Below, in pieces: positions 50,459 through 62,666 of a stretch of DNA of 64,000 nt. A program made the position numbers and the translations under genes. This stretch comes from Gammaproteobacteria bacterium. Its GTDB lineage: Bacteria > Pseudomonadota > Gammaproteobacteria > UBA4575. The stretch spans positions 3,144-67,143 of the forward strand of contig JAPOQE010000113.1 of assembly GCA_026710875.1 (NCBI GenBank). Direction: 5' to 3'. A model generated the notes under the pieces. The model was given only the letters and a program-made list of their open reading frames with translations, made no database searches and was not told where the DNA came from. Numbering within the stretch: the first letter of the stretch is position 1; each line of letters opens with the position of its first letter.

Positions 50459-51667
50459 ATGTTAGCCCGCGAAGCATTTGAGTTAGTCAATACACGTTTG
50501 ATGCACTTTGATAGCGTGGCGCTCATTGGCCCACGGCAAGTAGGGAAGACAACGCTCGCGCGGCAGATTGCTGGCGAGTGGAGCAGTGGTGCAAAATATC
50601 TGGATCTCGAGAATCCTGCAGACCGTCGTCTGCTGGACGACCCAGCAGCCTACCTCTCAACCTATGCCAGTCAGCTGATCGTTCTGGATGAGATCCACCG
50701 CGCGCCCGAGATATTTCAGGTTCTCAGGGGGCAAATCGACGAACGTCGCCGTATGCCAGGAGAGACCGGTAGGTTCCTGATTCTGGGATCAGCATCCATA
50801 GACCTGTTACGTCAGTCGTCAGAAAACCTGGCGGGTCGGATAAGCTATGTTGAATTGGCGCCGTTTACGACACGAGAGGTTTCGCGCCAAAGCTCACCCT
50901 CCGAGGACAGTTCGGCAAATGGACTTGACCGCCTCTGGGTGCAGGGCGGCTTTCCTCCAAGTTATCTCCGCGACGATGAAAGTGTGAGTTTGCGCTGGCG
51001 CACTGATTTCATTCAGACGTATTTAGAGCGGGATCTTCCGCAATTCGGTTTGCAAGTTTCCACTGATCGCATGGATCTGTTCTGGCGCATGATTTCCAAC
51101 GATCAAGGCGAATTATTCAATGCACAGCGTTATGCACGATCCTTGGGAGTGAGCGGACATACCGTTAGCCATTATCTTGATGTTCTCCACAAATTGCTCA
51201 TGCTTCGTGTGTTGCGACCTTGGTATGCCAACACAGGCAAGCGTCTCGTCAAGTCACCGCGGCCATATGTACGTGATAGCGGTATCCTGCACGCACTTCT
51301 GGGTCTGCGCACCATGGACGATCTCCTGTCTCACCCGGTAGCCGGAAAGAGTTGGGAGGGCTTTGTCATCGAAAATCTCATTAGTTCCACCACAGGGCGA
51401 GCAAACCCTTACTTTTATCGCACAGGTGCAGGTGCCGAGATTGATCTAGTTCTCGAGTTTGCGCCAGGCAAATGCTGGGCAATCGAAATCAAGCTGTCAA
51501 GCGCACCCACTGTCGACCGAGGTTTTTACAACGCAACAGATGATATCGGTGCAGAACGGCGGATTTTGGTTCACAAGGGAAAGGACTTGTTCCCCATGCG
51601 TCATGGCGTTGAGGCAATGCCGTTGCATGAAGCCATGAATGAAGTCAGTGCAGCGTTAAACGAATGA
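50459..51667 (+). CDS. AAA family ATPase (AAA_14 + DUF4143)
   Basis: Walker A GPRQVGKTT. DUF4143 C-terminal region. AT-rich flanks on both sides. Confidence 0.8.
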   Translation: MLAREAFELVNTRLMHFDSVALIGPRQVGKTTLARQIAGEWSSGAKYLDLENPADRRLLDDPAAYLSTYASQLIVLDEIHRAPEIFQVLRGQIDERRRMPGETGRFLILGSASIDLLRQSSENLAGRISYVELAPFTTREVSRQSSPSEDSSANGLDRLWVQGGFPPSYLRDDESVSLRWRTDFIQTYLERDLPQFGLQVSTDRMDLFWRMISNDQGELFNAQRYARSLGVSGHTVSHYLDVLHKLLMLRVLRPWYANTGKRLVKSPRPYVRDSGILHALLGLRTMDDLLSHPVAGKSWEGFVIENLISSTTGRANPYFYRTGAGAEIDLVLEFAPGKCWAIEIKLSSAPTVDRGFYNATDDIGAERRILVHKGKDLFPMRHGVEAMPLHEAMNEVSAALNE

Positions 51668-51920: not shown

Positions 51921-52250
51921 ATGAAATCCAAACTGCGTATTACAGCCCTGATCGTAGCAAGCCTTCTTGCCCTGTCCTCCTGTGAAACCATCGAGTTGAC
52001 GCATGAGGGGGAAAAGGCACGTGTCCTTAGCCCTGATGACGTGAAAAACTGCCAGAAGAACGGTGCAGCGACAGTCAGTATCAGCGAGGAATACCTGGGT
52101 CTTGTACCGAAACGGGCATCAACGATTGCCAACCAGCTGCAACGCCTGGCGCGCAACAGCGCGATTCACATGGGTGGTGACACAGTCGTGCCCATGTCAA
52201 AAATGGACCGCGGGCAACAGACGTTTGCCGTCTTTCGCTGTATCCCCTGA
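51921..52250 (+). CDS. small lipoprotein (lipobox LLALSSC), DUF4156-like
   Basis: Signal peptide plus lipobox. 109 aa. Convergent with the DUF2063 gene. Confidence 0.55.
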   Translation: MKSKLRITALIVASLLALSSCETIELTHEGEKARVLSPDDVKNCQKNGAATVSISEEYLGLVPKRASTIANQLQRLARNSAIHMGGDTVVPMSKMDRGQQTFAVFRCIP

Positions 52251-52365: not shown

Positions 52366-53217
52366 TCAGGATCCGGTCTTGAGACCGCAGAAGAATTCTT
52401 GGGCAGTCCATTGCTGAAACCATTCGCCCAGATTCGTCGTAATCTTGTCCATATCGACACCCTCTTGCAGGGCACAGTTCTCCAAGGCTTCCCCTAGGCT
52501 CTTGCCTTCCTTGAGCTGCGCCAGCAGGAGATAGCTTTCATATTCCAGGTCATCGCGCCATACCCGGTAATTGCAGCGATACACCACTACAAAGGACTTC
52601 TGGGCTTTTGGGGCGTCCATATGCCTGTCTTCATTCACCGCAGTCATGTAGGCATTGACCGGGTAATCCAGCTCCAGCAGATACAGGGCCGGATTAAACT
52701 CAAGACAAATTTCGGGCCATTGCTCACCCGGGACATTTTGTATCGCCTCCGTAGAAATCTTTTCCTTGTGCGGTGCATCGAAGACATCCTCCATCAGACG
52801 TTCGACGGTAGCCACCGCAACTACAAAAGGCTGGTGCGGAATCTCGTCGGCCTCGTTGCGCAGGTACTGCGGGAATTTGACACTCAGGCGGTTCAGGTTG
52901 TAGTACGTGGAGGGATGGCGTGTGATGTAGTCACGGACCACCTGTGCGAAACGCTCGACTCCCAACAGGTGCTCCACTGTCGGATACTCCTCTGACATGA
53001 TGTCTATAAATCGCCAGAAATACATGTCGGCGTACACCGAGATGCGCTCCAACGGTGTCAGTTTTTCAGAAGGAAGTACGGTTTGTTCAAGATCGTATGC
53101 GGCTTCGCTTCCAGGCTTGGAATTCGCCTCGACTCCAGCCTCGGCACCCTGCGGGTGACTGATAACCGAATACATCCACTGTTCGAGGCTTTCCAGCCCC
53201 GAATCATCACGAGGCAT
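52366..53217 (-). CDS. DUF2063 (MbnC/BufC-like, putative DNA-binding-domain) protein
   Basis: 283 aa overlapping the DUF692 gene by 11 nt. Typical DUF2063 partner of DUF692 enzymes (LERISVYADMYFWRFIDIMSEEYP...). Confidence 0.8.
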   Translation of the reverse strand: MPRDDSGLESLEQWMYSVISHPQGAEAGVEANSKPGSEAAYDLEQTVLPSEKLTPLERISVYADMYFWRFIDIMSEEYPTVEHLLGVERFAQVVRDYITRHPSTYYNLNRLSVKFPQYLRNEADEIPHQPFVVAVATVERLMEDVFDAPHKEKISTEAIQNVPGEQWPEICLEFNPALYLLELDYPVNAYMTAVNEDRHMDAPKAQKSFVVVYRCNYRVWRDDLEYESYLLLAQLKEGKSLGEALENCALQEGVDMDKITTNLGEWFQQWTAQEFFCGLKTGS

Positions 53218-54058
53218 GACGTAACTCGGTCATGTCGCGGAATTTTGCCGCCTTCATGACCTCGGCATGGACCTCATCGAACGACGGAATATTAGCATCC
53301 CACTCAAGCAGCGTTGCACGGTTTCCTGCACGGCGGTGTACCTCGGCATAGAGGTCCCATACAGGGTCAATAACCCGACCGTCATGCGTATCAATGCAAT
53401 GTGTACCCCTGTCTGTATGTCCGGCCAAATGAATCTGCACCACCCGGTCGTAAGGCATCGCCTCCAGATAGGCCTGGGCATCCAGCCCGTGATTGCGACA
53501 CGTGACGTAGACGTTGTTGACATCCAGCAGCAAGCCGCAGTCGGATTCCTCGGCCATGCGGGCCAGGAATTCCTCCTCGGCCATGGTGGAGTTTGCAAAG
53601 GTCAGGTAAGTCGATGGGTTTTCCAGTATCAGCGGACGCTCCATGAAATCCTGAACGGTACGGATCCGATCTACCAGGAACTTCAGGCTCTCTTCATTAT
53701 ATGGCAAGGGGTAGAGGTCGTGACCGTTTCGTCCATGTACCCCGGTCCAGCAGACATGGTCTCCCAGCCAGTGAGCATTCACCCGTTTGGCCAGGGTTTT
53801 CAGTTTTGACAGGTAGTCAAAGTCAATGGGGTCCGTACTGCCAATCGACATGGACACCCCATGCATGACAATCGGATAGCGCTCGGCAATCTGGTCCAGC
53901 ACACGTACGGGATTCCCATCAGTCTCCATGAAGTTCTCGGACATGATCTCGAACCAGTCGATTTGCGGCCACTGTTCAAGAATGTGGTTGAAATGGACTG
54001 TACGCAGCCCGATTCCGAGTCCAAGGTCAGGAAAGCCCCAGCGGTTTTCTACAGACAT
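53207..54058 (-). CDS. DUF692 (MbnB/TglH/BufB-like) TIM-barrel non-haem iron enzyme
   Basis: GLGIGLR N-terminal motif and xylose-isomerase-like TIM barrel (WFEIMSENFM...HLAGHTDRGTHCIDTHD) characteristic of DUF692/UPF0276. Confidence 0.85.
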   Translation of the reverse strand: MSVENRWGFPDLGLGIGLRTVHFNHILEQWPQIDWFEIMSENFMETDGNPVRVLDQIAERYPIVMHGVSMSIGSTDPIDFDYLSKLKTLAKRVNAHWLGDHVCWTGVHGRNGHDLYPLPYNEESLKFLVDRIRTVQDFMERPLILENPSTYLTFANSTMAEEEFLARMAEESDCGLLLDVNNVYVTCRNHGLDAQAYLEAMPYDRVVQIHLAGHTDRGTHCIDTHDGRVIDPVWDLYAEVHRRAGNRATLLEWDANIPSFDEVHAEVMKAAKFRDMTELRHAS

Positions 54059-54218
54059 AGAAACTACCTAGTGAATGAGAGTTGTCTGGTAAACATGGTA
54101 CCAGTATAGAAAGTATTCAAGCAATCGACGAGGGCATGCTGAATCCAGCAGCCCTGTCGATGCTCAAATCGTTTTAGGTTAAGTCAGAACTTTACAACGA
54201 ACGTGTATTAAGTACTGC

Positions 54219-54596
54219 TTATCCTTCCATGTGGCTGGGGTCTACCGGTAGTTGGCAACCGCCCTTGCCTTTACATGAGTTCTTGCCGGCACAGCCGTGA
54301 TCACCTGACTTGCAGCCACCCTGGCATTTACAGGCATTCTGGCCCTTACAGGCATGCTTTTCATACGTGTGGGCTGGGTCACAACCACCTTTACCCTTGC
54401 ATGAGTTCTTGCCGGCGCAACCGTGGTCACTCGATTTACAACCACCTTTGCCTTTACATTCATTCTGACCTTTGCAGCTATGCTTAGGGCAACCTGCATC
54501 TGGGTCACCAGCCAAGGCAACCGTCTGGCTTCCTGCCACCATTCCAGCTGCTGCAGCTACCATCAGTTTATTAAAATCACGACGCTTCATGTCCAT
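54219..54596 (-). CDS. secreted (Tat-type RRDF signal) 14-Cys repeat peptide; candidate RiPP metallophore precursor
   Basis: MDMKRRDFNKLMVAAAAGMVAGSQTVALA signal (AxA cleavage), then two approximately 40-aa repeats: C-x-KGQN-x-CKG-KGG-CKS-x-DHGCAGKNSCKGKGGC. GGAGG SD 9 nt upstream. Immediately 5' of the DUF692-DUF2063 pair. Confidence 0.7.
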   Translation of the reverse strand: MDMKRRDFNKLMVAAAAGMVAGSQTVALAGDPDAGCPKHSCKGQNECKGKGGCKSSDHGCAGKNSCKGKGGCDPAHTYEKHACKGQNACKCQGGCKSGDHGCAGKNSCKGKGGCQLPVDPSHMEG

Positions 54597-54627
54597 CGTT
54601 TATAACCTCCAACAATTATTATGTGTG

Positions 54628-54690
54628 TCTTGCGGTGCAAGGTGCAATTTCTGTCTACAGAAACGATTTATTGAACCTAGGGATTATACA
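54628..54690 (-). promoter_or_regulatory. candidate promoter (-10 TATAAT) and palindromic operators upstream of the Cys-rich peptide gene
   Basis: On the minus strand: TATAAT, then the perfect 16-bp palindrome TTTCTGTAGACAGAAA and a second IR CTTGCACCGCAAG, located between the promoter and the RBS. Confidence 0.4.
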
Positions 54691-54899
54691 GAATTGAAAC
54701 AAGAGGTGGCGAAAAATACCTGATATGAGCTATCTATAGTTGGATTTGAAATACCAATCTCTTGAATCTAACTAAACCTCAGTTTGGTCCTATATCGTCA
54801 TTCAGGCTGAGTAACCCCAGGTTGTAATCAGAGTTCCTTGCTAGATAATGAAGTTCACATTCAGTAAAGGATATGAAATTTCCCAGTTCATAGTCTTTC

Positions 54900-56726
54900 T
54901 CAGTAGCAGAGATCAATTACAATCTCTGTAGGGTATTCACGATGCTTGTCTGTGATTGAATCTACAATTCCAAGATCAAGAATTAGCGCGCCTGCATAGA
55001 ATTTTCCTTGTAGCCTGCTTGCAACAGCCTCCTGATACTCATTCCCATCTTGGTCCTCACATTCAATATTGAGCACATCATCCGAGCGTCTGATCATTGC
55101 TGTTCCAGGCACATCAACATGCCAAAGCCCTCGTTTATTCGAGACAGTGCAAACTGCCCCTTTCCCTTTACATCCTGGCGCCTTGAATTTGATTTGCTGG
55201 TGGGCATCGTTCATGACTGTAGCGCAGCCAGTTATTACCACCATGCAAAAGGCAGCAGTGGTTGTTGATGTACCATGAAGTGGATCTAAATTAGCATCCC
55301 CTCGAGTTTGTATAGGACCACCACTGTAATGATTACGCTCCTTGAACTGCACACCCACGTGACCATCGATGTTTAGGAATGGGGCCAGAAAGCCCATATA
55401 CCCTACACCCAGTGTGGCACGATGACGGTAGATCACCTCAGTTTGTGAGGCCTGCAGATACTCAAGTACAGACTGTCCAAGATTAACAATACCAGGCTCA
55501 TCACCATTCGCACCACCTATTGGAATGGCATTACAGGTTGTAGCCGATGAACAGACATAGGGGAGACCCTTAATTTGATCAGCATCGCGGTCTGTAGGAT
55601 CATCCGCATAACCATATCCACCACGGAAGCGCCAGTTGCCCATCTTCATCTCGGCACCGATGCTGTAGACCATCTGGTCTTCATACACATCGCCCCAGAA
55701 GTCGGCCTCTTCCCAGTTCTTCCACATGATGTCTGCGGCTATCAGCAAGTTCCCATCCATAAATGTTTCATTGGATATACCAATTCCAATAGTACGTGGC
55801 TCCTCAATAGGGATAGATGCATAGCGTACCTTTCCGGTGTCCCCATATCCGTCAAATACAACATCGTTATCCACCTCAAATGCAGGCACCGCAACAATGT
55901 CGTCAAACACATGCTGCAGTTCCGTCATATAGAACAAGCCCAACCGAGTACCCGGCACAATATCCTCATAGGTCAAGCCAATCGTGCCACGCATCCCCGT
56001 GTCATGGGTTACGCCAGAAGTGGCTGCAAGTCCCAAGTCCAGGTAGGCGTACGTTACAGTAGCGGCACCACCTATGGATACCTGTTCATTCAGCTCCCAG
56101 CCAAGTGCGAAGTTCGCACCCAGTACAATGAATTCTGCACCGAGTCCCAGAGTCTCCTCTACATGGCGGAATTCCACGCCAATCCCTGACACAGCTGTCA
56201 GGCCAGCACCGAGTACAGCTGGCAAACCCAGTGGTCTCAGATCCTGAGTGACACCCACCTGGGGCACAATGTAGCCTTCGTTTCCATTGACTGCATCATC
56301 AAATGTGGCATTGCTGATACAGAAGCCAGCCCCACATCCTGCTAATGTACCTGGTCCTAAGGCTGTACCACCATGTCTAGGATTCGGCGCATTCGGAGCA
56401 TATATATCAAGAACTTCTTGAGGGACAGCACCTGCATATGTGGGAAGCGCAAGAGCACCCGAGTGATCCAGGCGCACTTCAGGCTTGTAGTAGGTGGCAC
56501 CAAACGTGAATTCAGTACCCGTCCAGTCCGTTAATGCTGCAGGGTTACCAAAGATCGCGGACACATTATCCAGAGGCTTGGCGATACTCGTACCCGCCAT
56601 ACCTGCTGAACGTGGCGCCAGCACGTTGTGCAGGTCGTAGCCATACGGACCCGCATAGGCAGTTCCCGATATCGCAAGCGAGGCCAACAGCCCCATTGCT
56701 AACCACCGATTAAAAACTTTCCTCAT
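54900..56726 (-). CDS. FadL/TodX (Toluene_X) family outer-membrane transporter with a C-proximal Cys-rich insert
   Basis: Signal peptide (AISGTAYA). FadL-type N-terminal hatch motif (SAGMAGTSIAKPLDNVSAIFGNPAAL). Terminal aromatic (..IDLCY). 608 aa versus about 430 for typical FadL. 6 Cys cluster near the C-terminus, including the KAPGCKGKGAVC element. Confidence 0.75.
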   Translation of the reverse strand: MRKVFNRWLAMGLLASLAISGTAYAGPYGYDLHNVLAPRSAGMAGTSIAKPLDNVSAIFGNPAALTDWTGTEFTFGATYYKPEVRLDHSGALALPTYAGAVPQEVLDIYAPNAPNPRHGGTALGPGTLAGCGAGFCISNATFDDAVNGNEGYIVPQVGVTQDLRPLGLPAVLGAGLTAVSGIGVEFRHVEETLGLGAEFIVLGANFALGWELNEQVSIGGAATVTYAYLDLGLAATSGVTHDTGMRGTIGLTYEDIVPGTRLGLFYMTELQHVFDDIVAVPAFEVDNDVVFDGYGDTGKVRYASIPIEEPRTIGIGISNETFMDGNLLIAADIMWKNWEEADFWGDVYEDQMVYSIGAEMKMGNWRFRGGYGYADDPTDRDADQIKGLPYVCSSATTCNAIPIGGANGDEPGIVNLGQSVLEYLQASQTEVIYRHRATLGVGYMGFLAPFLNIDGHVGVQFKERNHYSGGPIQTRGDANLDPLHGTSTTTAAFCMVVITGCATVMNDAHQQIKFKAPGCKGKGAVCTVSNKRGLWHVDVPGTAMIRRSDDVLNIECEDQDGNEYQEAVASRLQGKFYAGALILDLGIVDSITDKHREYPTEIVIDLCY

Positions 56727-57294
56727 TGGTTACCCTCCCAGTTTTAGTAGTCTTGTTTGATTGGTGACTAATGAAAATTACCAACAAATTTTTACTTAAT
56801 TACTCACGCAATTATGAAGCCCTTACCTATGAAGGTAAAAGCATCACGGTTGTTTTGTATTGACAGATGTGCCACAGAGATCGAATTGGAACTGGACTTT
56901 TGTAAGCAGTATCAATTCAAACTCTCCCTTAATCCTCTCTTGTTCAGCTTTTGCAGCCTGATTATTTTGTTCCAACAGCACCAAGTTCTTAGGCTTCTTC
57001 GTATCAGACCTGCCTGTGTGTAACACATTCTGAACTGATCCTACCAAGGCCTGTTCACTGCATTACCTATAGGCGCTGCATTTGATTAACATAAGTGTAA
57101 TGAATATTACAGTGAAATCAAGGCAAATGGTAGCCCGCAGCCTGAATCAAATCCCAAGGAAACCTTCGTGCCTTCGTATCTCTTGAGCCCTGGAAATGTG
57201 AATTCCAGTTGTAATCCCCAAAACGTGATCAATTAATAATCAAATACGTGAACGAGAAGGGTCAGAATCCATGGTACGCAGTATCGGAATTTAC

Positions 57295-57449
57295 CAGACA
57301 AGCCCTGTCTGATTATTAAAGCGAGGACTCCGAGACGGGCGGCACACGCCCTGAAAGTCAAATCAGCAAGGCTGCCGATTTGACTTTCCAAGGACTACAT
57401 TTCAAGCCTGTACACACCCAGGTGTGCAGCCAAGGGGCCATACGGCCCC
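57295..57449 (-). ncRNA. hairpin-dense structured region (possible cis-regulatory leader, attenuator or sRNA)
   Basis: Five perfect stem-loops within about 155 nt: CAGACA/TGTCTG; GGGCG/CGCCC; 12-bp GAAAGTCAAATC/GATTTGACTTTC; CACAC/GTGTG; GGGGCC/GGCCCC. They lie in the roughly 0.7-kb untranslated gap upstream of the FadL-like gene. Confidence 0.3.
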
Positions 57450-57458
57450 AATCGATCA

Positions 57459-57566
57459 CTAGAAGCTTATTAAACCTGCAAGATATAGCGTAAGCACGAT
57501 CACTCCGATTCCGAAGACCATCGCAGTTACGAAAACCATTACGTCATTTCCTCCATCTCCGGCCAT
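57459..57566 (-). CDS. 35-aa single-TM small protein (MAGDGGNDVMVFVTAMVFGIGVIVLTLYLAGLISF)
   Basis: Below the 60-aa ORF-track cutoff. Strong SD AAAGGAGG 7 nt upstream of ATG. Hydrophobic helix. Immediately followed by the GGGGCC hairpin. Confidence 0.45.
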   Translation of the reverse strand: MAGDGGNDVMVFVTAMVFGIGVIVLTLYLAGLISF

Positions 57567-57656
57567 TATGTGCCTCCTTTGTAATTGTTGTTACCCAGTG
57601 TCATTTATAGTTATGTCCAGGCATTATTGATGATAACGCCTGCAACTGCAAAATTC

Positions 57657-58106
57657 TCAATTCTTTTCACCCTCCGGTTCACTGTCCACAGCACAGACAT
57701 CCGGATTGTCCAGCAACTCCTTCAGGTAAGCCGCAGTGCTTACCCTCTCCCCGGTGGTGATCCACAACCGCAATGCGCTGGCTCCCTCAATCATGAACGC
57801 GGTTTCCTTCGCACCATCCGCATGGTCTTTGGTCACCGGCAGCTTTTCAATTTCAGGTGAACCGACATCCATGTGTTCGCCCAGAATATCTTCAACCAGT
57901 GTCTGCTTGGTGTCCTTGGGCAGACCATCATACTCTGCCAAGTATAAAACGGCACCGTACAGATAGTAAATCGCATACCGGCGCTTGCGCGTGGCCTCCT
58001 GAAGGTCTCCGTCCTCCAGCTTGGCCAGGGTATCCGTCACAAAAGGGGTCAGCGCTGCCGTTATCCCCTTGATTTCACTACCCTCTTTTTTCGATGTCCA
58101 CCACAT
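57657..58106 (-). CDS. hypothetical acidic protein (149 aa)
   Basis: Clean ORF co-directional with, and 35 nt downstream of, the GST-like gene. No family recognised. Confidence 0.5.
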   Translation of the reverse strand: MWWTSKKEGSEIKGITAALTPFVTDTLAKLEDGDLQEATRKRRYAIYYLYGAVLYLAEYDGLPKDTKQTLVEDILGEHMDVGSPEIEKLPVTKDHADGAKETAFMIEGASALRLWITTGERVSTAAYLKELLDNPDVCAVDSEPEGEKN

Positions 58107-58141
58107 GGCCAGTCATTTATTCCCGTATATACGTGATCTAT

Positions 58142-58924
58142 CTAGTAGTCTGACACTTCTACCGAACTAAGTCGCTTGTTTTTTATGTCCTCCCGCGTAG
58201 GAAGCAGGTCATAGGCGATAATATTCTGCCCGGAATAGCTCTTGTGTGCACGAATACGGTCCAGCCAGGCCTTGATATTGGGGCGCTGGTCAACGACTGC
58301 GCCTTCCCCAGCCTCGCATAGAAGATGAATATAGGCCGTCCAGTGGATATCTGCGAATGAGTAACTGCCGATGATAAATTCGTTGTTCGCGAGCTGCTCA
58401 TCGAGGGCATCCAGGGCCGCTTCCAGCCCTTCACGGGCACGATCCACTGCCGTATGGTCCGGATCCTTGCCCAGAATCGGTGCGTAGACCCGCTGCTTCA
58501 CGATTTCCTCAACATGGAGGCCAACCTCACTGCAGGCCACATCGGACCAGTAGTTTTGAGCTGCCAGCAGTGCCGCATTTTGCGGCGGCAGGCGCCGGCC
58601 AAGGCCCCGCGCCTCGATATAGCTCATGATGCCCTGCTCTCCAGCCACGATGTAATCGGCTTCCTTCAAGGCGGGTATAGTGCCATAGGGCGAGACCTCA
58701 AGATAAGCACTCGAGTGCTGTTCGTTCACCGAGATATCCAGAATCCCGCAATCGGTTTCCATGCCCATTTCCACTGCAGTGATCAGGCACTTCAGGGTGC
58801 CGGCATCTCCAGGTGAGCCCAGCAACTGCAACACGTACTGGGTTTTCTTCATGTCACCAGTGGCCCCGTACCCGCTACTCGCGTCAGGGTCTGCAGCTCG
58901 GCCAAATTCAAACAGATCACTCAT
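58142..58924 (-). CDS. GST-like protein, paralogue 1 (Cys-type N-domain, FADIHW C-domain motif)
   Basis: Thioredoxin-like N-domain with a conserved Cys (TLKCLITAVEMG) and C-terminal GST helical domain. One of three paralogues sharing (S/A)F(S/A)(F/Y)AD(I/V)HW. Confidence 0.7.
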   Translation of the reverse strand: MSDLFEFGRAADPDASSGYGATGDMKKTQYVLQLLGSPGDAGTLKCLITAVEMGMETDCGILDISVNEQHSSAYLEVSPYGTIPALKEADYIVAGEQGIMSYIEARGLGRRLPPQNAALLAAQNYWSDVACSEVGLHVEEIVKQRVYAPILGKDPDHTAVDRAREGLEAALDALDEQLANNEFIIGSYSFADIHWTAYIHLLCEAGEGAVVDQRPNIKAWLDRIRAHKSYSGQNIIAYDLLPTREDIKNKRLSSVEVSDY

Positions 58925-58993
58925 TGCACGAATTGCTCCAGGTGCTTTACTTCAAAATCAGCCACTCGCATTGCGGCCCATCGCGCAGGGTGG

Positions 58994-59695
58994 TCAGGCC
59001 ACATTCCTGAATTCCCTGCCCTGGATCTCAGATGCTGACGACAAGGCCTCATAGGGAGATCCGTGCCCACCTTTGCGGGATTTCATACGCTCGAACCAGG
59101 ATTTCAGATTTGCTCGGGAATCAATCAGGCTGTCCCGGCCACAGACATGACAAAGATGCAGGTAGGCAATCCAGTGAATGTCTGCATAGGAAAATGCCCC
59201 GACGATATACTCCTTGTCGGACAAGGTAGCATTCATACCATCGAAGATCTTCTGCAGGTCCTCTTCGGCCGCAGCCGTTCCCTGCCCGCCGGTGTCGGCG
59301 CCCGGATTGAACACGGCATCCTGCAACAAGACATTGATCTGCGGCATGACCCGGAACTGTCCAATCTCGATCCAGTAGTTCTGTTGCCCCAGGTGTGCAG
59401 CCTTGCGAGGTGTAAGGGGCTGTCCGCCACCGCGAACGCCCAGATAGGGTAGAACCGCTGCAATTCCGGAGGTTACAAAATCGCCATTGATCAGGCACGG
59501 GAGCTTGCCGAAGGGAGACAGGGACTTGAGGGTTGCATCAGGATACTGATCATCCAGGATATCAACCAGCTCGACTTTCAGTTTGACGCCTTTTTCAGCA
59601 GCAAGGTACAGGCATTTACAGGTATCGGCATGCCCGGGGTGGCCGAGCAGTCGAAGTTCTTCGCCAGATTTCTTTTTTCGTCCGAACAGTCCCAT
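58994..59695 (-). CDS. GST-like protein, paralogue 2
   Basis: CKCLYLAAEKG N-domain Cys. FSYADIHWIAYLHL motif. 69-nt spacing to paralogue 1. Confidence 0.7.
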   Translation of the reverse strand: MGLFGRKKKSGEELRLLGHPGHADTCKCLYLAAEKGVKLKVELVDILDDQYPDATLKSLSPFGKLPCLINGDFVTSGIAAVLPYLGVRGGGQPLTPRKAAHLGQQNYWIEIGQFRVMPQINVLLQDAVFNPGADTGGQGTAAAEEDLQKIFDGMNATLSDKEYIVGAFSYADIHWIAYLHLCHVCGRDSLIDSRANLKSWFERMKSRKGGHGSPYEALSSASEIQGREFRNVA

Positions 59696-59884
59696 TGTCA
59701 GTTGAACGCCAGCATTAAAGGTAGACGTGTGCCGAGGGTACTTTGATTGATGGAAGGTACAGCTTTTATGTGCAGTCCAACCGGGGCTGGAAGCAAACTC
59801 CTGTTTGCTTCACGCCCAGTTGATCGCGTCTCGTTTAGGAATAGCGCCCGGCGCTATCGAACGATCGCTTCTGTTAAGGGGTTG

Positions 59885-60091
59885 CTACTCCTTAAACCAT
59901 TTGAACGGATGTTCACCTGCGAGCTTGAGATAGATCCATACGTTAATGACCAGGGCCACCAGCAGTACCACTGCTCCGGCAAGGGCCATCAAGGGATCGG
60001 TATGGGCTGCTGAAAGGCCAAGCATGTTCATGCCGTAAAACACAGCCGCGGAAAAGATTAGCATCACAACGATAGCTCTGAATGAATACAT
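59885..60091 (-). CDS. small two-TM membrane protein (68 aa)
   Basis: AGGAGG SD 9 nt upstream. Two hydrophobic helices. It sits between GST paralogues 2 and 3. Confidence 0.5.
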   Translation of the reverse strand: MYSFRAIVVMLIFSAAVFYGMNMLGLSAAHTDPLMALAGAVVLLVALVINVWIYLKLAGEHPFKWFKE

Positions 60092-60379
60092 TAGTCACAC
60101 CTCCTGACTCAGATTCTATAAACGGGTATATGTTTATTCAGTACAGGGACACCAAGAGAACTGTAAACACCATGACTCTCGGCATCCTCGGCACACCTGC
60201 ACCCCTGACCCTCTATGGAGTCGTTAAAGCACGTCTTGTACCGCACCCAACCCGAGTCCTGGGACCGAGTTCAATGCATACGACCTGCTTCAGTACTCCA
60301 GTGGACCAGGGCATTACTTTGCAGGCAAGCCCACTTCAAATATACAAATTAATGTGAAAAAAGAAATCCCGTTTTTCTT

Positions 60380-61063
60380 TTAGACATTGATCTGCACATC
60401 ACGCAGGCTGTTGCCACTGATGTCTGTTTTAGTCGGAAGCACATCGTAGGCCCTGATGTTCTCTTTGCTGGTGCTAGGATGCGACTTGACCAGTCCCCAC
60501 CATTTCGCAACGGCCGGACGTGATTCCACAATATCACTGCTGTCAGCCAGCATGCACCCTTGTGCCATGGCCGCCCAGTGGACATCAGCAAAGCTGAATC
60601 CTCCGCAGATGAAATCTCCACGCAACGCCGGATTGGACTTCGATGCCAAGTGCGAGTTCAGGAGATCAAAGCAAGCCGAAGCTGCTGCTGCATCGCCCCC
60701 GCCAGCCATGATTCCCGAGACCGCAGGCATCGCATTATTGGTTGCCAGTTGGTTCCACTGATACATGATGGCACGTACAACACCATTACGTGGACTCAAG
60801 GATGGGCCAAAGCCTTTGTCGTTCAGATAGGACATGATGCCCTCCTGGCCGCAGACCACAAAATCCACGTCTTTCAGTGCCGGCAGCAAGCCGTGCGGTG
60901 CAAGCGCCTGAACTTCAGCTGAGCCCGCTCCGCCGTTGGGATCAACATAATGTGAGTCGAGATCCACACCTTTTTCGGCAGCGGTGAACAGGCACATCGC
61001 ACTGCGCAGGCAAGAGGGGTTCCCATAAAATTTCATTTTGTCCTGCAAATGATCACCTAACAT
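60380..61063 (-). CDS. GST-like protein, paralogue 3
   Basis: CLFTAAEKG N-domain Cys. FSFADVHWAAMAQG motif. Confidence 0.7.
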   Translation of the reverse strand: MLGDHLQDKMKFYGNPSCLRSAMCLFTAAEKGVDLDSHYVDPNGGAGSAEVQALAPHGLLPALKDVDFVVCGQEGIMSYLNDKGFGPSLSPRNGVVRAIMYQWNQLATNNAMPAVSGIMAGGGDAAAASACFDLLNSHLASKSNPALRGDFICGGFSFADVHWAAMAQGCMLADSSDIVESRPAVAKWWGLVKSHPSTSKENIRAYDVLPTKTDISGNSLRDVQINV

Positions 61064-61455
61064 TTTTTATACCTCTTTATGTTTGGAGTTATTGGTTTAT
61101 GTCTGGGGTTACCACTACTGGCCCCTGGTATCAAAATAGTCAGGATAGGATACGCTGCCATTGCAGCGTCACGCATCATCACGTTCAGTATCCTCCTGAT
61201 ATCCGTAAATGCTAGGGCATTTGCCCTTAGCTCCTCTCTTTCAATAATGCTCATTTCGAGCAGTCATGAAATCTGTCGTCAGTATCCAAGCGTGTGCACA
61301 GATATGACACCAGCCTTAATTCTTATCCTTTATCCTGTCAGGTTCTATGGTGTTTGCCACAGACACCTGGCAAGAGTTCAATACAATTTCCTTATTCTTA
61401 TTGTCTCCTGGGTTTTCGGTACATGCCCCGACTCCCCTTTCCGTCTTGTTCCCTT

Positions 61456-61486
61456 CTTTAGCGCACGTGCCCGGAAAACCCGGGCA
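61456..61486 (-). terminator. strong GC-rich hairpin downstream of the alkB-like gene
   Basis: Perfect 11-bp inverted repeat CACGTGCCCGG-aaaac-CCGGGCACGTG about 25 nt after the stop. No clean U-tract, so it may be a processing/stability element or a factor-binding site rather than an intrinsic terminator. Confidence 0.35.
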
Positions 61487-61511
61487 CGTGACAACTAAAA
61501 GTTACGTTTAC

Positions 61512-62666
61512 TTAAGCGTAACCGATTTGACGGTTCAGACGATCCGCAATTGCGCGTTCGCCTTCCGAAGCACGCTCTCTGTCCCACTTTGCCAATTCCT
61601 TCTTAAAGTACATATGGTGAAGTGGTGGAATGAGTGCTATGGCAAACAAGGTGAAGTAACCCCATCCGGTGTTGGGCGCACCTACGTCGTCCAGCTCCCA
61701 GAAGTGTGTTTCACCACGGTCATGGTGATCAGCCTGACGGCCAATCTCAATGAAGAACCAACTGGTGAACGCGGTTGAGTTATCCCACGAATGTCTGTAG
61801 TCGATCGGCTGGCCTTTCTCCCGAATCAAGCCATAGTGCTCCATATAGTTGAGCGCTTCCAACTCGAAGTTCGAGATCAGCCAAATCGTTGCCAAGCTGG
61901 CAAGACCGATCCAGCCCCCTGCAAACCAGAACAGGAACAGGGTTGGCAGGCTCATGGCATAGCCACGCAGCCAGCGGTTTTCCCAAGTGAACCAGGACTT
62001 GCCCAGTCGCTCGAGACGCTGCTTCTCCATTCTGTAGAGGAAGCGAGACTGTCCGATTCCAGCCAATGGGTAGTGTCGGTAAATGGTTCTTCCACGAGGA
62101 GACGTGGCAGGATCGTCTTCATGTGCCAGTTCCAGATGGTGGTTATAGACATGCGCATAGCTGAAGTGAGCCTTGCCACTCAACGCCATCATTGTGCGTG
62201 AAATGACGAAAGCAAATCCCTTCGTATGGCTTAACTCATGCCCATAAATGATACCAATGCCGGCAAAGATACCTGTTGAGAGCGTTGCACCAATCAGGTC
62301 AAGGCCGGTGATTCCATTCTGGAAGGGCAGGATTCCGAACATCATATGATCGAATCCGGCGCTTACTGGAACACCACTGACATATTGATAGACGCGCCAG
62401 GCCATGGCCAGCTGCAGGAGTACAAATATTCCCAGCATGCCATACATTATGCTGTTCTGTAGCCAGGGCACACCCATCGTTTCACCGTTGTTGTCGTATC
62501 CCGCACCTGCAGGACGAAACTTCAACAGTGTGTCAATCACGATACCTACGCCCAGCAGCAGTAATCCTATCCAGGAAAACATGCCGCCCATCAGCACACC
62601 GAACATCGTAACGATGATCAGGAACGGGGCGAACCAGTACCTTGCGTTAATCAAAATTTTCTTCAT
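61512..62666 (-). CDS. AlkB/XylM-family integral-membrane non-haem diiron hydroxylase (alkane 1-monooxygenase-like)
   Basis: All four His boxes of the AlkB family are present: HELSHTK, HVYNHH..EDDPATS, NYMEHYGL, RQADHHD. Multiple TM helices. 384 aa. Confidence 0.85.
   Translation of the reverse strand: MKKILINARYWFAPFLIIVTMFGVLMGGMFSWIGLLLLGVGIVIDTLLKFRPAGAGYDNNGETMGVPWLQNSIMYGMLGIFVLLQLAMAWRVYQYVSGVPVSAGFDHMMFGILPFQNGITGLDLIGATLSTGIFAGIGIIYGHELSHTKGFAFVISRTMMALSGKAHFSYAHVYNHHLELAHEDDPATSPRGRTIYRHYPLAGIGQSRFLYRMEKQRLERLGKSWFTWENRWLRGYAMSLPTLFLFWFAGGWIGLASLATIWLISNFELEALNYMEHYGLIREKGQPIDYRHSWDNSTAFTSWFFIEIGRQADHHDRGETHFWELDDVGAPNTGWGYFTLFAIALIPPLHHMYFKKELAKWDRERASEGERAIADRLNRQIGYA

Follow-up and report, generated by a model that had tools for sequence, protein, structure and literature searches.

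A probable Buf2-type bufferin operon with a tandem 12-Cys precursor and a twin-arginine-type signal, beside a disrupted FadL-like gene, in an uncultured gammaproteobacterium

A 64,000-nucleotide stretch of contig JAPOQE010000113.1 (assembly GCA_026710875.1, positions 3,144 to 67,143 of the forward strand), hereafter the window, comes from an uncultured gammaproteobacterium with a small genome and contains a three-gene operon, bufA2-bufB-bufC. From its gene content, family assignments, motif conservation and synteny, we conclude that the operon very probably belongs to the Buf2 (BUF_6/12Cys) family of bufferins, in the tandem 12-Cys form. A previous sequence-only reading of the same DNA had seen here a bufferin-like cassette for a peptide made by ribosomes and modified after translation (a RiPP), with a DUF692 and a DUF2063 protein acting on a signal-peptide-bearing, Cys-rich precursor, and this core of it was correct. 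The four open reading frames (ORFs) that it delimited were all recovered on the minus strand, with exact coordinates:

54900-56726, minus strand: FadL-like ORF, 608 aa
54219-54596, minus strand: bufA2, the precursor ORF, 125 aa
53207-54058, minus strand: bufB, 283 aa
52366-53217, minus strand: bufC, 283 aa

The bufB and bufC genes overlap by 11 nt, and their two 283-aa products matched the Pfam families that had been proposed for them. The bufB product matched PF05114 (MbnB_TglH_ChrH, or DUF692) with 358 bits (E = 3.5e-107) and passed the NCBIfam model MNIO_BufB (NF050167) with 358.8 bits at a cutoff of 310; it stayed under the cutoffs of the NCBIfam models for HvfB, ApyH, ChrH and MbnB, and its relatives in the PDB are 3bww, 8hci and MbnB. 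The N-terminal part of the bufC product matched PF09836 (DUF2063) with 62.6 bits (cutoff 27.2), and its C-terminus resembled, weakly and under the cutoff of that model (21.3 bits), the RiPP recognition element-like domain NGO1945_C (PF22106). A sequence search of the PDB returned nothing for the precursor and nothing for BufC. Scanning species-representative genomes with a BufB alignment yielded 80 loci, which represent many phyla and were taken with flanking DNA of up to 8 kb. A bufC homologue was found downstream of bufB in 78 of these 80 loci, and the order peptide, MNIO, DUF2063 recurred in Acidobacteriota, Planctomycetota, Steroidobacteraceae, Woeseiaceae and others, so that the linkage of the peptide gene to the enzyme genes at orthologous loci, on which the sequence-only reading depended, extends across phyla.

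The precursor begins with MDMKRRDFNK and has 14 Cys residues. This number had been given before, but as two 7-Cys repeats; what we found instead were two canonical 6-Cys modules and two extra Cys. The modules are:

54381-54476, minus strand: 6-Cys module 1, Cys41-Cys72, spacing 6,6,7,6,6, at BufA2 model positions ~29-62
54255-54350, minus strand: 6-Cys module 2, Cys83-Cys114, spacing 6,6,7,6,6 when the extra Cys91 is excluded

Over the whole peptide the Cys spacing is thus 5 / 6,6,7,6,6 / 11 / 6,(2+4),7,6,6, as compared with 6,6,7,6,6, then 8 or 9, then 6,6,7,6,6 for the commonest arrangement among 12-Cys homologues. One extra Cys lies five residues ahead of module 1 and the other, Cys91, is part of a KCQGG in module 2 that corresponds to KGQGG in the family; the sister genomes keep both extra Cys. 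The repetition of the module is detectable also in the DNA. BufA2 (NF050166) was the sole NCBIfam family that the precursor matched, in two stretches and with 50.7 bits (E = 1.5e-13). Scanned by itself, the part with the signal peptide and module 1 scored 39.1 bits; module 2 by itself scored 23.1 bits (E = 6.3e-5), and both matches fell on the 6-Cys core of the model. A family search returned 5409 homologues (E <= 1e-3), and in the full-length family alignment 24 columns are invariant, 10 of them Cys, the other two Cys of the skeleton being present in at least 90% of the sequences; the features common to the alignment are the RR, both KHxCKGxNxCKGxGGCxxGDxGCAGKNSCKGKGGC modules and a VPVDPSHM tail. 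At the sequence level, the homology of the precursor to BufA2 is clear.

These features are those of a published family. In PMC12452194, Buf2 (formerly BUF_6/12Cys) is described as having six conserved Cys in 90% of its members and 12, as duplicated domains, in the rest, with WP_077285100 of Cognaticolwellia aestuarii as an example of the 12-Cys form; the founding buf2ABC operon of Caulobacter vibrioides (CCNA_02999-03001) is without DoxX (PMC11626156). The operon in the window shares with Buf2 the order precursor, MNIO (BufB), DUF2063 (BufC, PME type 1) with no DoxX, a BufB that passes the curated model, and a signal-peptide-bearing precursor with the CKGxNxCKGxGGC...GCAGKNSCKGKGGC motif, the module being duplicated as in the ~10% of members with 12 Cys. 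It differs from the usual Buf2 in its two additional Cys (14 in total) and in a linker of 11 residues between the modules instead of 8-9, and from the Caulobacter operon in having a sigma-70-like promoter, with no SigF or NrsF genes seen nearby. The sequence-only reading had held that the precursor does not fit the 6/12-Cys bufferins and may be new. This was incorrect, because the published Buf2 family covers both duplicated 12-Cys forms and the DoxX-less operon; the precursor matches BufA2, its Cys skeleton is the canonical one, and the absence of DoxX is normal for buf2.

Several observations weigh against this assignment. The score of the precursor falls below the 60-bit trusted cutoff of BufA2, so that by a strict criterion it would not automatically receive the BufA2 name; its close 12-Cys relatives, with 61.6, 59.6 and 55.6 bits, lie on either side of that cutoff. 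The only NCBIfam match of the bufC product was HvfC, with 61.2 bits at a cutoff of 142, and no BufC-specific NCBIfam model matched it. No copper-homeostasis or regulator gene adjoins the operon, as judged by Pfam and NCBIfam scans of the neighborhood. The signal of the precursor carries a twin-arginine translocation (Tat)-type motif, as opposed to the general secretory (Sec) signals of the published family description. An AlphaFold model of the precursor, built on a 54-sequence alignment, was poor (mean predicted local distance difference test score 51.5, predicted template modeling score 0.19), and the claim of a duplicated fold thus draws on sequence and on the literature. Finally, the specificity for copper is extrapolated from one 6-Cys homologue, and we found no experiment on any 12-Cys member in the searchable literature.

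The signal peptide is the one feature of the locus for which we found no description in the searchable bufferin literature:

54510-54596, minus strand: Tat-type signal peptide, residues 1-29, MDMKRRDFNKLMVAAAAGMVAGSQTVALA, with an RR-x-F-x-K motif and a hydrophobic region

The Tat consensus is (S/T)-R-R-x-F-L-K, and the motif of the precursor conforms to it; cleavage is predicted after Ala29, a site chosen by eye according to the AxA rule. Of the 120 closest homologues, 111 have the RR-x-F-x-K motif and the hydrophobic region; among these 111 the F occurs in 106 and the K in 91. At their N-termini, M-[DNK]-R-R-[DEN]-F-x-K leads into a hydrophobic stretch rich in Ala and Gly, and the other homologues have signals of the Sec or lipoprotein type. 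The Tat-like RRDF signal pointed out by the sequence-only reading is thus genuine and subgroup-wide. The RR motif was also seen in many of the genome loci of Acidobacteriota, Planctomycetota and Gammaproteobacteria, although the Cys and RR tallies for the peptides upstream of BufB in the 80 loci are illustrative and not exact, some of the Cys-containing ORFs picked being spurious. The alignment to the NCBIfam BufA2 model begins only at residue 12 of the window precursor, past the RR motif, which suggests that the sequences seeding the model have short Sec-type n-regions. Published descriptions of Buf2, in PMC11626156 and PMC12452194, list Sec-dependent or lipoprotein signals only. Within the searchable literature, the Tat route was not mentioned in the two main bufferin papers, in one further MNIO paper or in the supplements, and a search pairing twin-arginine or Tat with MNIO or bufferin found nothing relevant.

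Because the RR-x-F-x-K motif is conserved in the subgroup, export of the precursor is probably by Tat and not by Sec. We see about an even chance that the tandem 12-Cys Buf2 peptides form a Tat-exported subclass, whose members would cross the membrane folded, after heterocyclization in the cytoplasm, and possibly loaded with metal. The candidate subclass would extend to thousands of metagenomic sequences from Gammaproteobacteria, Acidobacteriota, Planctomycetota and other groups.

A distinct precursor variant with 9-10 Cys was seen upstream of BufB at nine loci (L019, L025, L030, L031, L054, L070, L073, L081 and L087), mainly from Planctomycetota and Verrucomicrobiota. It has an RR signal, the form HVCRGLNTCKG...CAGQGxCAT...HxCxGxNxCKGQGGCGxxPGxNxCKGxGxCAVPL and a Lys-rich helical tail (AWKKARKNFEAAMKKAGKKFG), and it may represent a further Buf2-like subgroup.

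What we propose for the chemistry and for copper binding follows the characterized Buf2 of Caulobacter by analogy, and our views on export by Tat and on regulation are likewise proposals. According to PMC11626156, CysI and CysVI of that peptide are unmodified and the four central Cys each show a shift of -4.03 Da; the Caulobacter buf2 operon is induced by copper and protects against it, and thiooxazole chemistry, copper binding and induction are known only for Caulobacter Buf1 and Buf2. By this model, the 125-aa precursor would be made in the cytoplasm, where BufB and BufC would oxidize four Cys per 6-Cys module, the central ones, to 5-thiooxazoles, giving eight heterocycles per peptide at about -4 Da each. 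The peptide would then be exported to the periplasm, probably via Tat, and cut, probably behind Ala29, to remove its signal. A disulfide would link the two outer Cys within each module, a third may join the two extra Cys, and the mature product of ~96 residues would chelate excess periplasmic copper. The operon would be expressed from its own promoter, which has an operator-like palindrome, and a hairpin between bufA2 and bufB would probably favor expression of the precursor over that of the enzymes. The FadL-like gene is in this model an unrelated neighbor, for which we found nothing that ties it to bufferin function.

Related MNIO systems offer other chemistries. Buf1 (DUF2282; the bufABCD and gig operons of Caulobacter and Cupriavidus) has in common with our locus an MNIO and a DUF2063 protein, the thiooxazole logic and a periplasmic copper chelator, and differs in a DUF2282 precursor with 4 Cys, usually a DoxX gene and often sigma/anti-sigma genes, none of which are found at the window locus. 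The HvfABC oxazolin system of Haemophilus influenzae (Buf_EGKCG) likewise combines an MNIO and a DUF2063-type partner with a secreted Cys-repeat peptide that binds copper, and methanobactin clusters, MbnABC(TM), rely on an MNIO-family enzyme that modifies Cys in a ribosomally made peptide and so produces a copper ligand. That the window operon is of the oxazolin or methanobactin type, and makes oxazolone-thioamide groups (the chemistry reported for HvfABC) in place of thiooxazoles, could be argued from the match of its MNIO to HvfB (258.7 bits) and from HvfC being the only NCBIfam family matched by bufC; the two chemistries are, moreover, hard to tell apart experimentally according to the literature. 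Yet the HvfB score is under its cutoff of 360, as are the HvfC score and that of the MbnB model TIGR04159 (52.2 bits, cutoff 325), whereas BufB is above its own; the precursor carries the Buf2 motif, and neither EGKCG nor a leader and core of the MbnA type. Methanobactin clusters have an MbnC partner, a leader-bearing precursor, a secreted chalkophore and uptake through MbnT, where the window has a DUF2063 protein and a signal peptide; we found no MbnC, MbnT or MbnM in the neighborhood, and no TonB-dependent receptor or MATE gene in its conserved part. Because the models for the two systems score under their cutoffs, the locus is, on this evidence, not a methanobactin or oxazolin cluster, and we regard such a chemistry as highly improbable. 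Only a small chance can also be given to the operon not being a copper buffer, its product being either an unmodified, metallothionein-like Cys-rich protein of the periplasm or a ligand for another metal (Hg, Au, Zn, Cd). The lack of a copper gene or copper-responsive regulator nearby would fit this possibility, as would a promoter that is sigma-70-like, where the Caulobacter operons are under control of the SigF type; MerC-Buf2 fusions reported in mercury clusters make other metals plausible for some members. Against it, the precursor is tightly coupled with an intact BufB and BufC, through overlapping genes and conservation across phyla, which argues for modification, and the characterized homologue is modified and is copper-specific in both induction and phenotype.

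The remaining alternative concerns the FadL-like ORF, in which the sequence-only reading saw the co-transcribed FadL/TodX-like partner of an undescribed metallophore subfamily, through which the peptide, alone or complexed with metal, would cross the outer membrane. Residues 41-379 of the 608-aa ORF matched PF03349 (Toluene_X/FadL; 34.3 bits, cutoff 29.7), and the FadL portion is 79-87% identical to PF03349-annotated orthologues of the clade. In favor of a partnership, FadL is directly upstream of bufA2 and on the same strand in five genomes (the window, L001/L011, L007, L091 and L092). These are close relatives, from a clade of ~1.8-Mb Gammaproteobacteria metagenome-assembled genomes (MAGs) with BufB proteins 89-99% identical, and they share the whole neighborhood, which extends from ClpB to ProRS with the order ClpB, FA_desaturase, GST-like, 68-aa gene, GST, GST, 149-aa gene, FadL, bufA2BC and, on the opposite strand, DUF4156; the adjacency of FadL and bufA2 is thus simply synteny. 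When we asked whether a FadL gene recurs beside bufferin genes, a tblastn search of the 80 BufB loci with the FadL part found a match in one, L011, which comes from the 1.87-Mb Gammaproteobacteria MAG chromosome that is also the source of L001 and belongs to the clade of the window; loci with precursors 63-64% identical have no FadL. Conversely, a FadL orthologue at 61% identity has a DUF3015 gene downstream of it, and one at 49% identity has FA_desaturase, ferredoxin, GST and reductase genes upstream, a globin gene downstream and no buf genes. By these comparisons, FadL travels with the AlkB-like desaturase/GST block upstream of it and not with the bufferin genes.

Co-transcription was not supported either. 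In L001 and L091, a GC-rich hairpin of 14-15 bp with a T-run follows the FadL stop codon, forming a strong intrinsic terminator; in L092 we read by eye GGGTGGCGTAATGCCACCC followed by eight T, which the terminator scan did not list, and the scan of L007 found none. These terminators, together with the conserved promoter of bufA2, indicate, as consensus matches and not as proof, that FadL and bufA2 are separate transcription units. In the window itself a deletion has removed the terminator, and read-through from FadL into bufA2 is possible there, but in that FadL the final β-strand is missing, and bufA2BC is intact. The published survey finds no other conserved genes in bufferin biosynthetic gene clusters (PMC12452194). 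FadL or the outer membrane is not mentioned in the two main bufferin papers or their supplements, in so far as the literature is searchable. Taken together, a dedicated outer-membrane partner is extremely unlikely, and FadL is better regarded as a syntenic neighbor of a Buf2 operon.

The 608-aa protein is, moreover, not natural over its full length; FadL orthologues have 490-526 aa and end in ...DVWSWHAGFALTWNFQY. The ORF consists of two parts:

55251-56726, minus strand: FadL/TodX-family gene (PF03349), 3'-truncated, a neighbor and not a member of the buf operon
54900-55250, minus strand: small lipoprotein gene, 5'-truncated, fused in frame to FadL, with 594 homologues

The N-terminal ~490 residues resemble FadL/TodX/OmpP1 channels, and their orthologues stand downstream of FA_desaturase (AlkB-like) and glutathione S-transferase (GST) genes, a context typical of hydrophobic substrates. 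Unlike these channels, the window copy is without the C-terminal β-strand and aromatic terminus. The terminal strand of all seven aligned homologues is ...SWHAGFALTW(N/H)F(Q/E/N), the close orthologues having Y at the end; the window protein diverges after about residue 492 and runs for 116 residues more without it. At the DNA level, the window loses homology to L001 and L007 at ~55305/55250 and ~54765. An exhaustive search with the tail returned the 594 homologues, which are stand-alone lipoproteins ~120-200 aa long, for example MKPHVVLLTIAALSGCATLTNDP..., with residues 4-113 of the tail aligned to lipoprotein residues ~11-121. The family motif is ...SGCAT-x-NDP...RRSDD...LD(F/L)GIVD(A/S)ITDKHR(E/D)YP; neither the tail nor its best homologues matched a family in Pfam or NCBIfam. 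L092 has FadL intact and with its terminator, and the lipoprotein gene comes after it as a separate copy (MRSVIFAVCCMAVITSC..., L092:7590-7970), which is frameshifted and 86% identical in DNA to the segment in the window; the gene is absent from the spacer in L001, L007 and L091.

Since L092 has the two genes as separate units in this order, a deletion between resident genes is favored, and an origin of the 3' end of the outer-membrane gene from foreign or mobile DNA was rejected. Judged from these alignments, the window has lost ~200 bp that comprised the final 17 codons of FadL, the terminator behind them and ~9 codons from the start of the lipoprotein gene, and the deletion left both genes fused in frame. 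The remnant retains 6 residues before the lipobox Cys. A barrel without its closing strand and such a remnant lipoprotein are both unlikely to function, and the deletion has probably inactivated both genes; bufA2BC, by contrast, is intact and 94% identical to that of L001. The junction was read from a single assembled sequence and may be an assembly artifact. As the lipoprotein gene is frameshifted, fused or absent depending on the genome, the spacer between FadL and bufA2 is a hotspot of gene decay.

Three candidate regulatory elements were found in the spacers of the locus:

54683-54712, minus strand: putative sigma-70-like promoter of bufA2, TCGCCA, 18-nt spacer, TATAAT, with TG ahead of the -10 and 10/12 matches
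54648-54663, no strand: 16-bp palindrome TTTCTGTAGACAGAAA, candidate operator, ~20 bp downstream of the -10 box
54115-54169, minus strand: RNA hairpin of 24 bp within the 160-nt spacer between bufA2 and bufB, candidate attenuator or mRNA stabilizer

About 190 bp upstream of bufA2, including the promoter, are nearly identical between genomes. The same promoter site is present in L001, L091 and L092, the version in L007 being CTAACA-18-TATAAT, and TTCTGTATAAT is invariant at the promoter in a three-genome alignment; a promoter function is suggested by this match to the consensus. The palindrome, with half-sites TTTCTGTA-N0-2-TACAGAAA, is conserved in three genomes and has the perfect form TTTCTGTATACAGAAA in L007. 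It occurs once in the window, a chance match at two mismatches being obtained in 14 of 100 shuffles, and its position is like that of an operator, for which it is a candidate; to our knowledge it does not resemble the CueR, CopY, CsoR or LexA boxes. The bufA2-bufB spacer was predicted to fold with -48.9 kcal/mol (z = -4.4). Across five genomes, 98.7% of the cells in the hairpin are paired, with three compensatory pairs, as compared with 28-38% for slid partners, a modest support from covariation given that the five sequences are related. Control that favors the precursor over its enzymes is common in RiPP operons, and the hairpin probably raises the precursor-to-enzyme ratio. Distant loci are without it; the corresponding spacer in L003 is 22 nt long. 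At the gathering threshold, Rfam gave no RNA family in the window, and no known riboswitch upstream of FadL or bufA2.

Further upstream of FadL, the block at 57657-62666 contains the following genes:

61512-62666, minus strand: FA_desaturase/AlkB-like membrane di-iron enzyme
60380-61063, minus strand: GST-like protein
59885-60091, minus strand: 68-aa membrane peptide
58994-59695, minus strand: GST-like protein
58142-58924, minus strand: GST-like protein
57657-58106, minus strand: 149-aa protein of no family

In L008, a more distant relative, the block also has ferredoxin and ferredoxin reductase genes. Together with FadL, these genes suggest a module for the oxidation and uptake of hydrophobic substrates. 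The ~930 bp between this block and FadL (56727-57656) have no convincing ORF and no Rfam match; in relatives there is only an ORF of 35-37 aa, and conservation is patchy in L007. On the other side of the operon, an AAA_14/DUF4143 ATPase gene (50459-51667, plus strand) is located between the genes for ProRS and DUF4156. It is absent from that position in L007 and L092, and in L001 FitA-like, DUF3775 and AbiEi genes stand beside it; the islet is variable and probably mobile or defense-related. In each of the clade's five genomes, the gene for a DUF4156 lipoprotein (51921-52250, plus strand) is convergent with bufC; it is not found beside buf operons elsewhere and is probably a mere syntenic neighbor.

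As a bufferin operon, the locus adds little to what is known, as the family, its enzymes, the 12-Cys variants and the DoxX-less buf2 architecture were already published in 2024-2025 and NCBI models exist for BufA2 and BufB; the two extra Cys, the longer linker and the sub-cutoff BufA2 score are minor peculiarities. The FadL-like gene shows how misleading it can be to infer function from gene adjacency in one genome: the supposed partner is a syntenic bystander and, in this genome, a probable pseudogene made by a deletion and fusion. The conserved twin-arginine motif is relevant to the site at which these peptides encounter their metal and to the state they are in when they do so. If a Tat-exported subclass exists, it would contradict the generalization that bufferins are exported by Sec, and some bufferins could then remove copper from the cytoplasm rather than merely buffer the periplasm.

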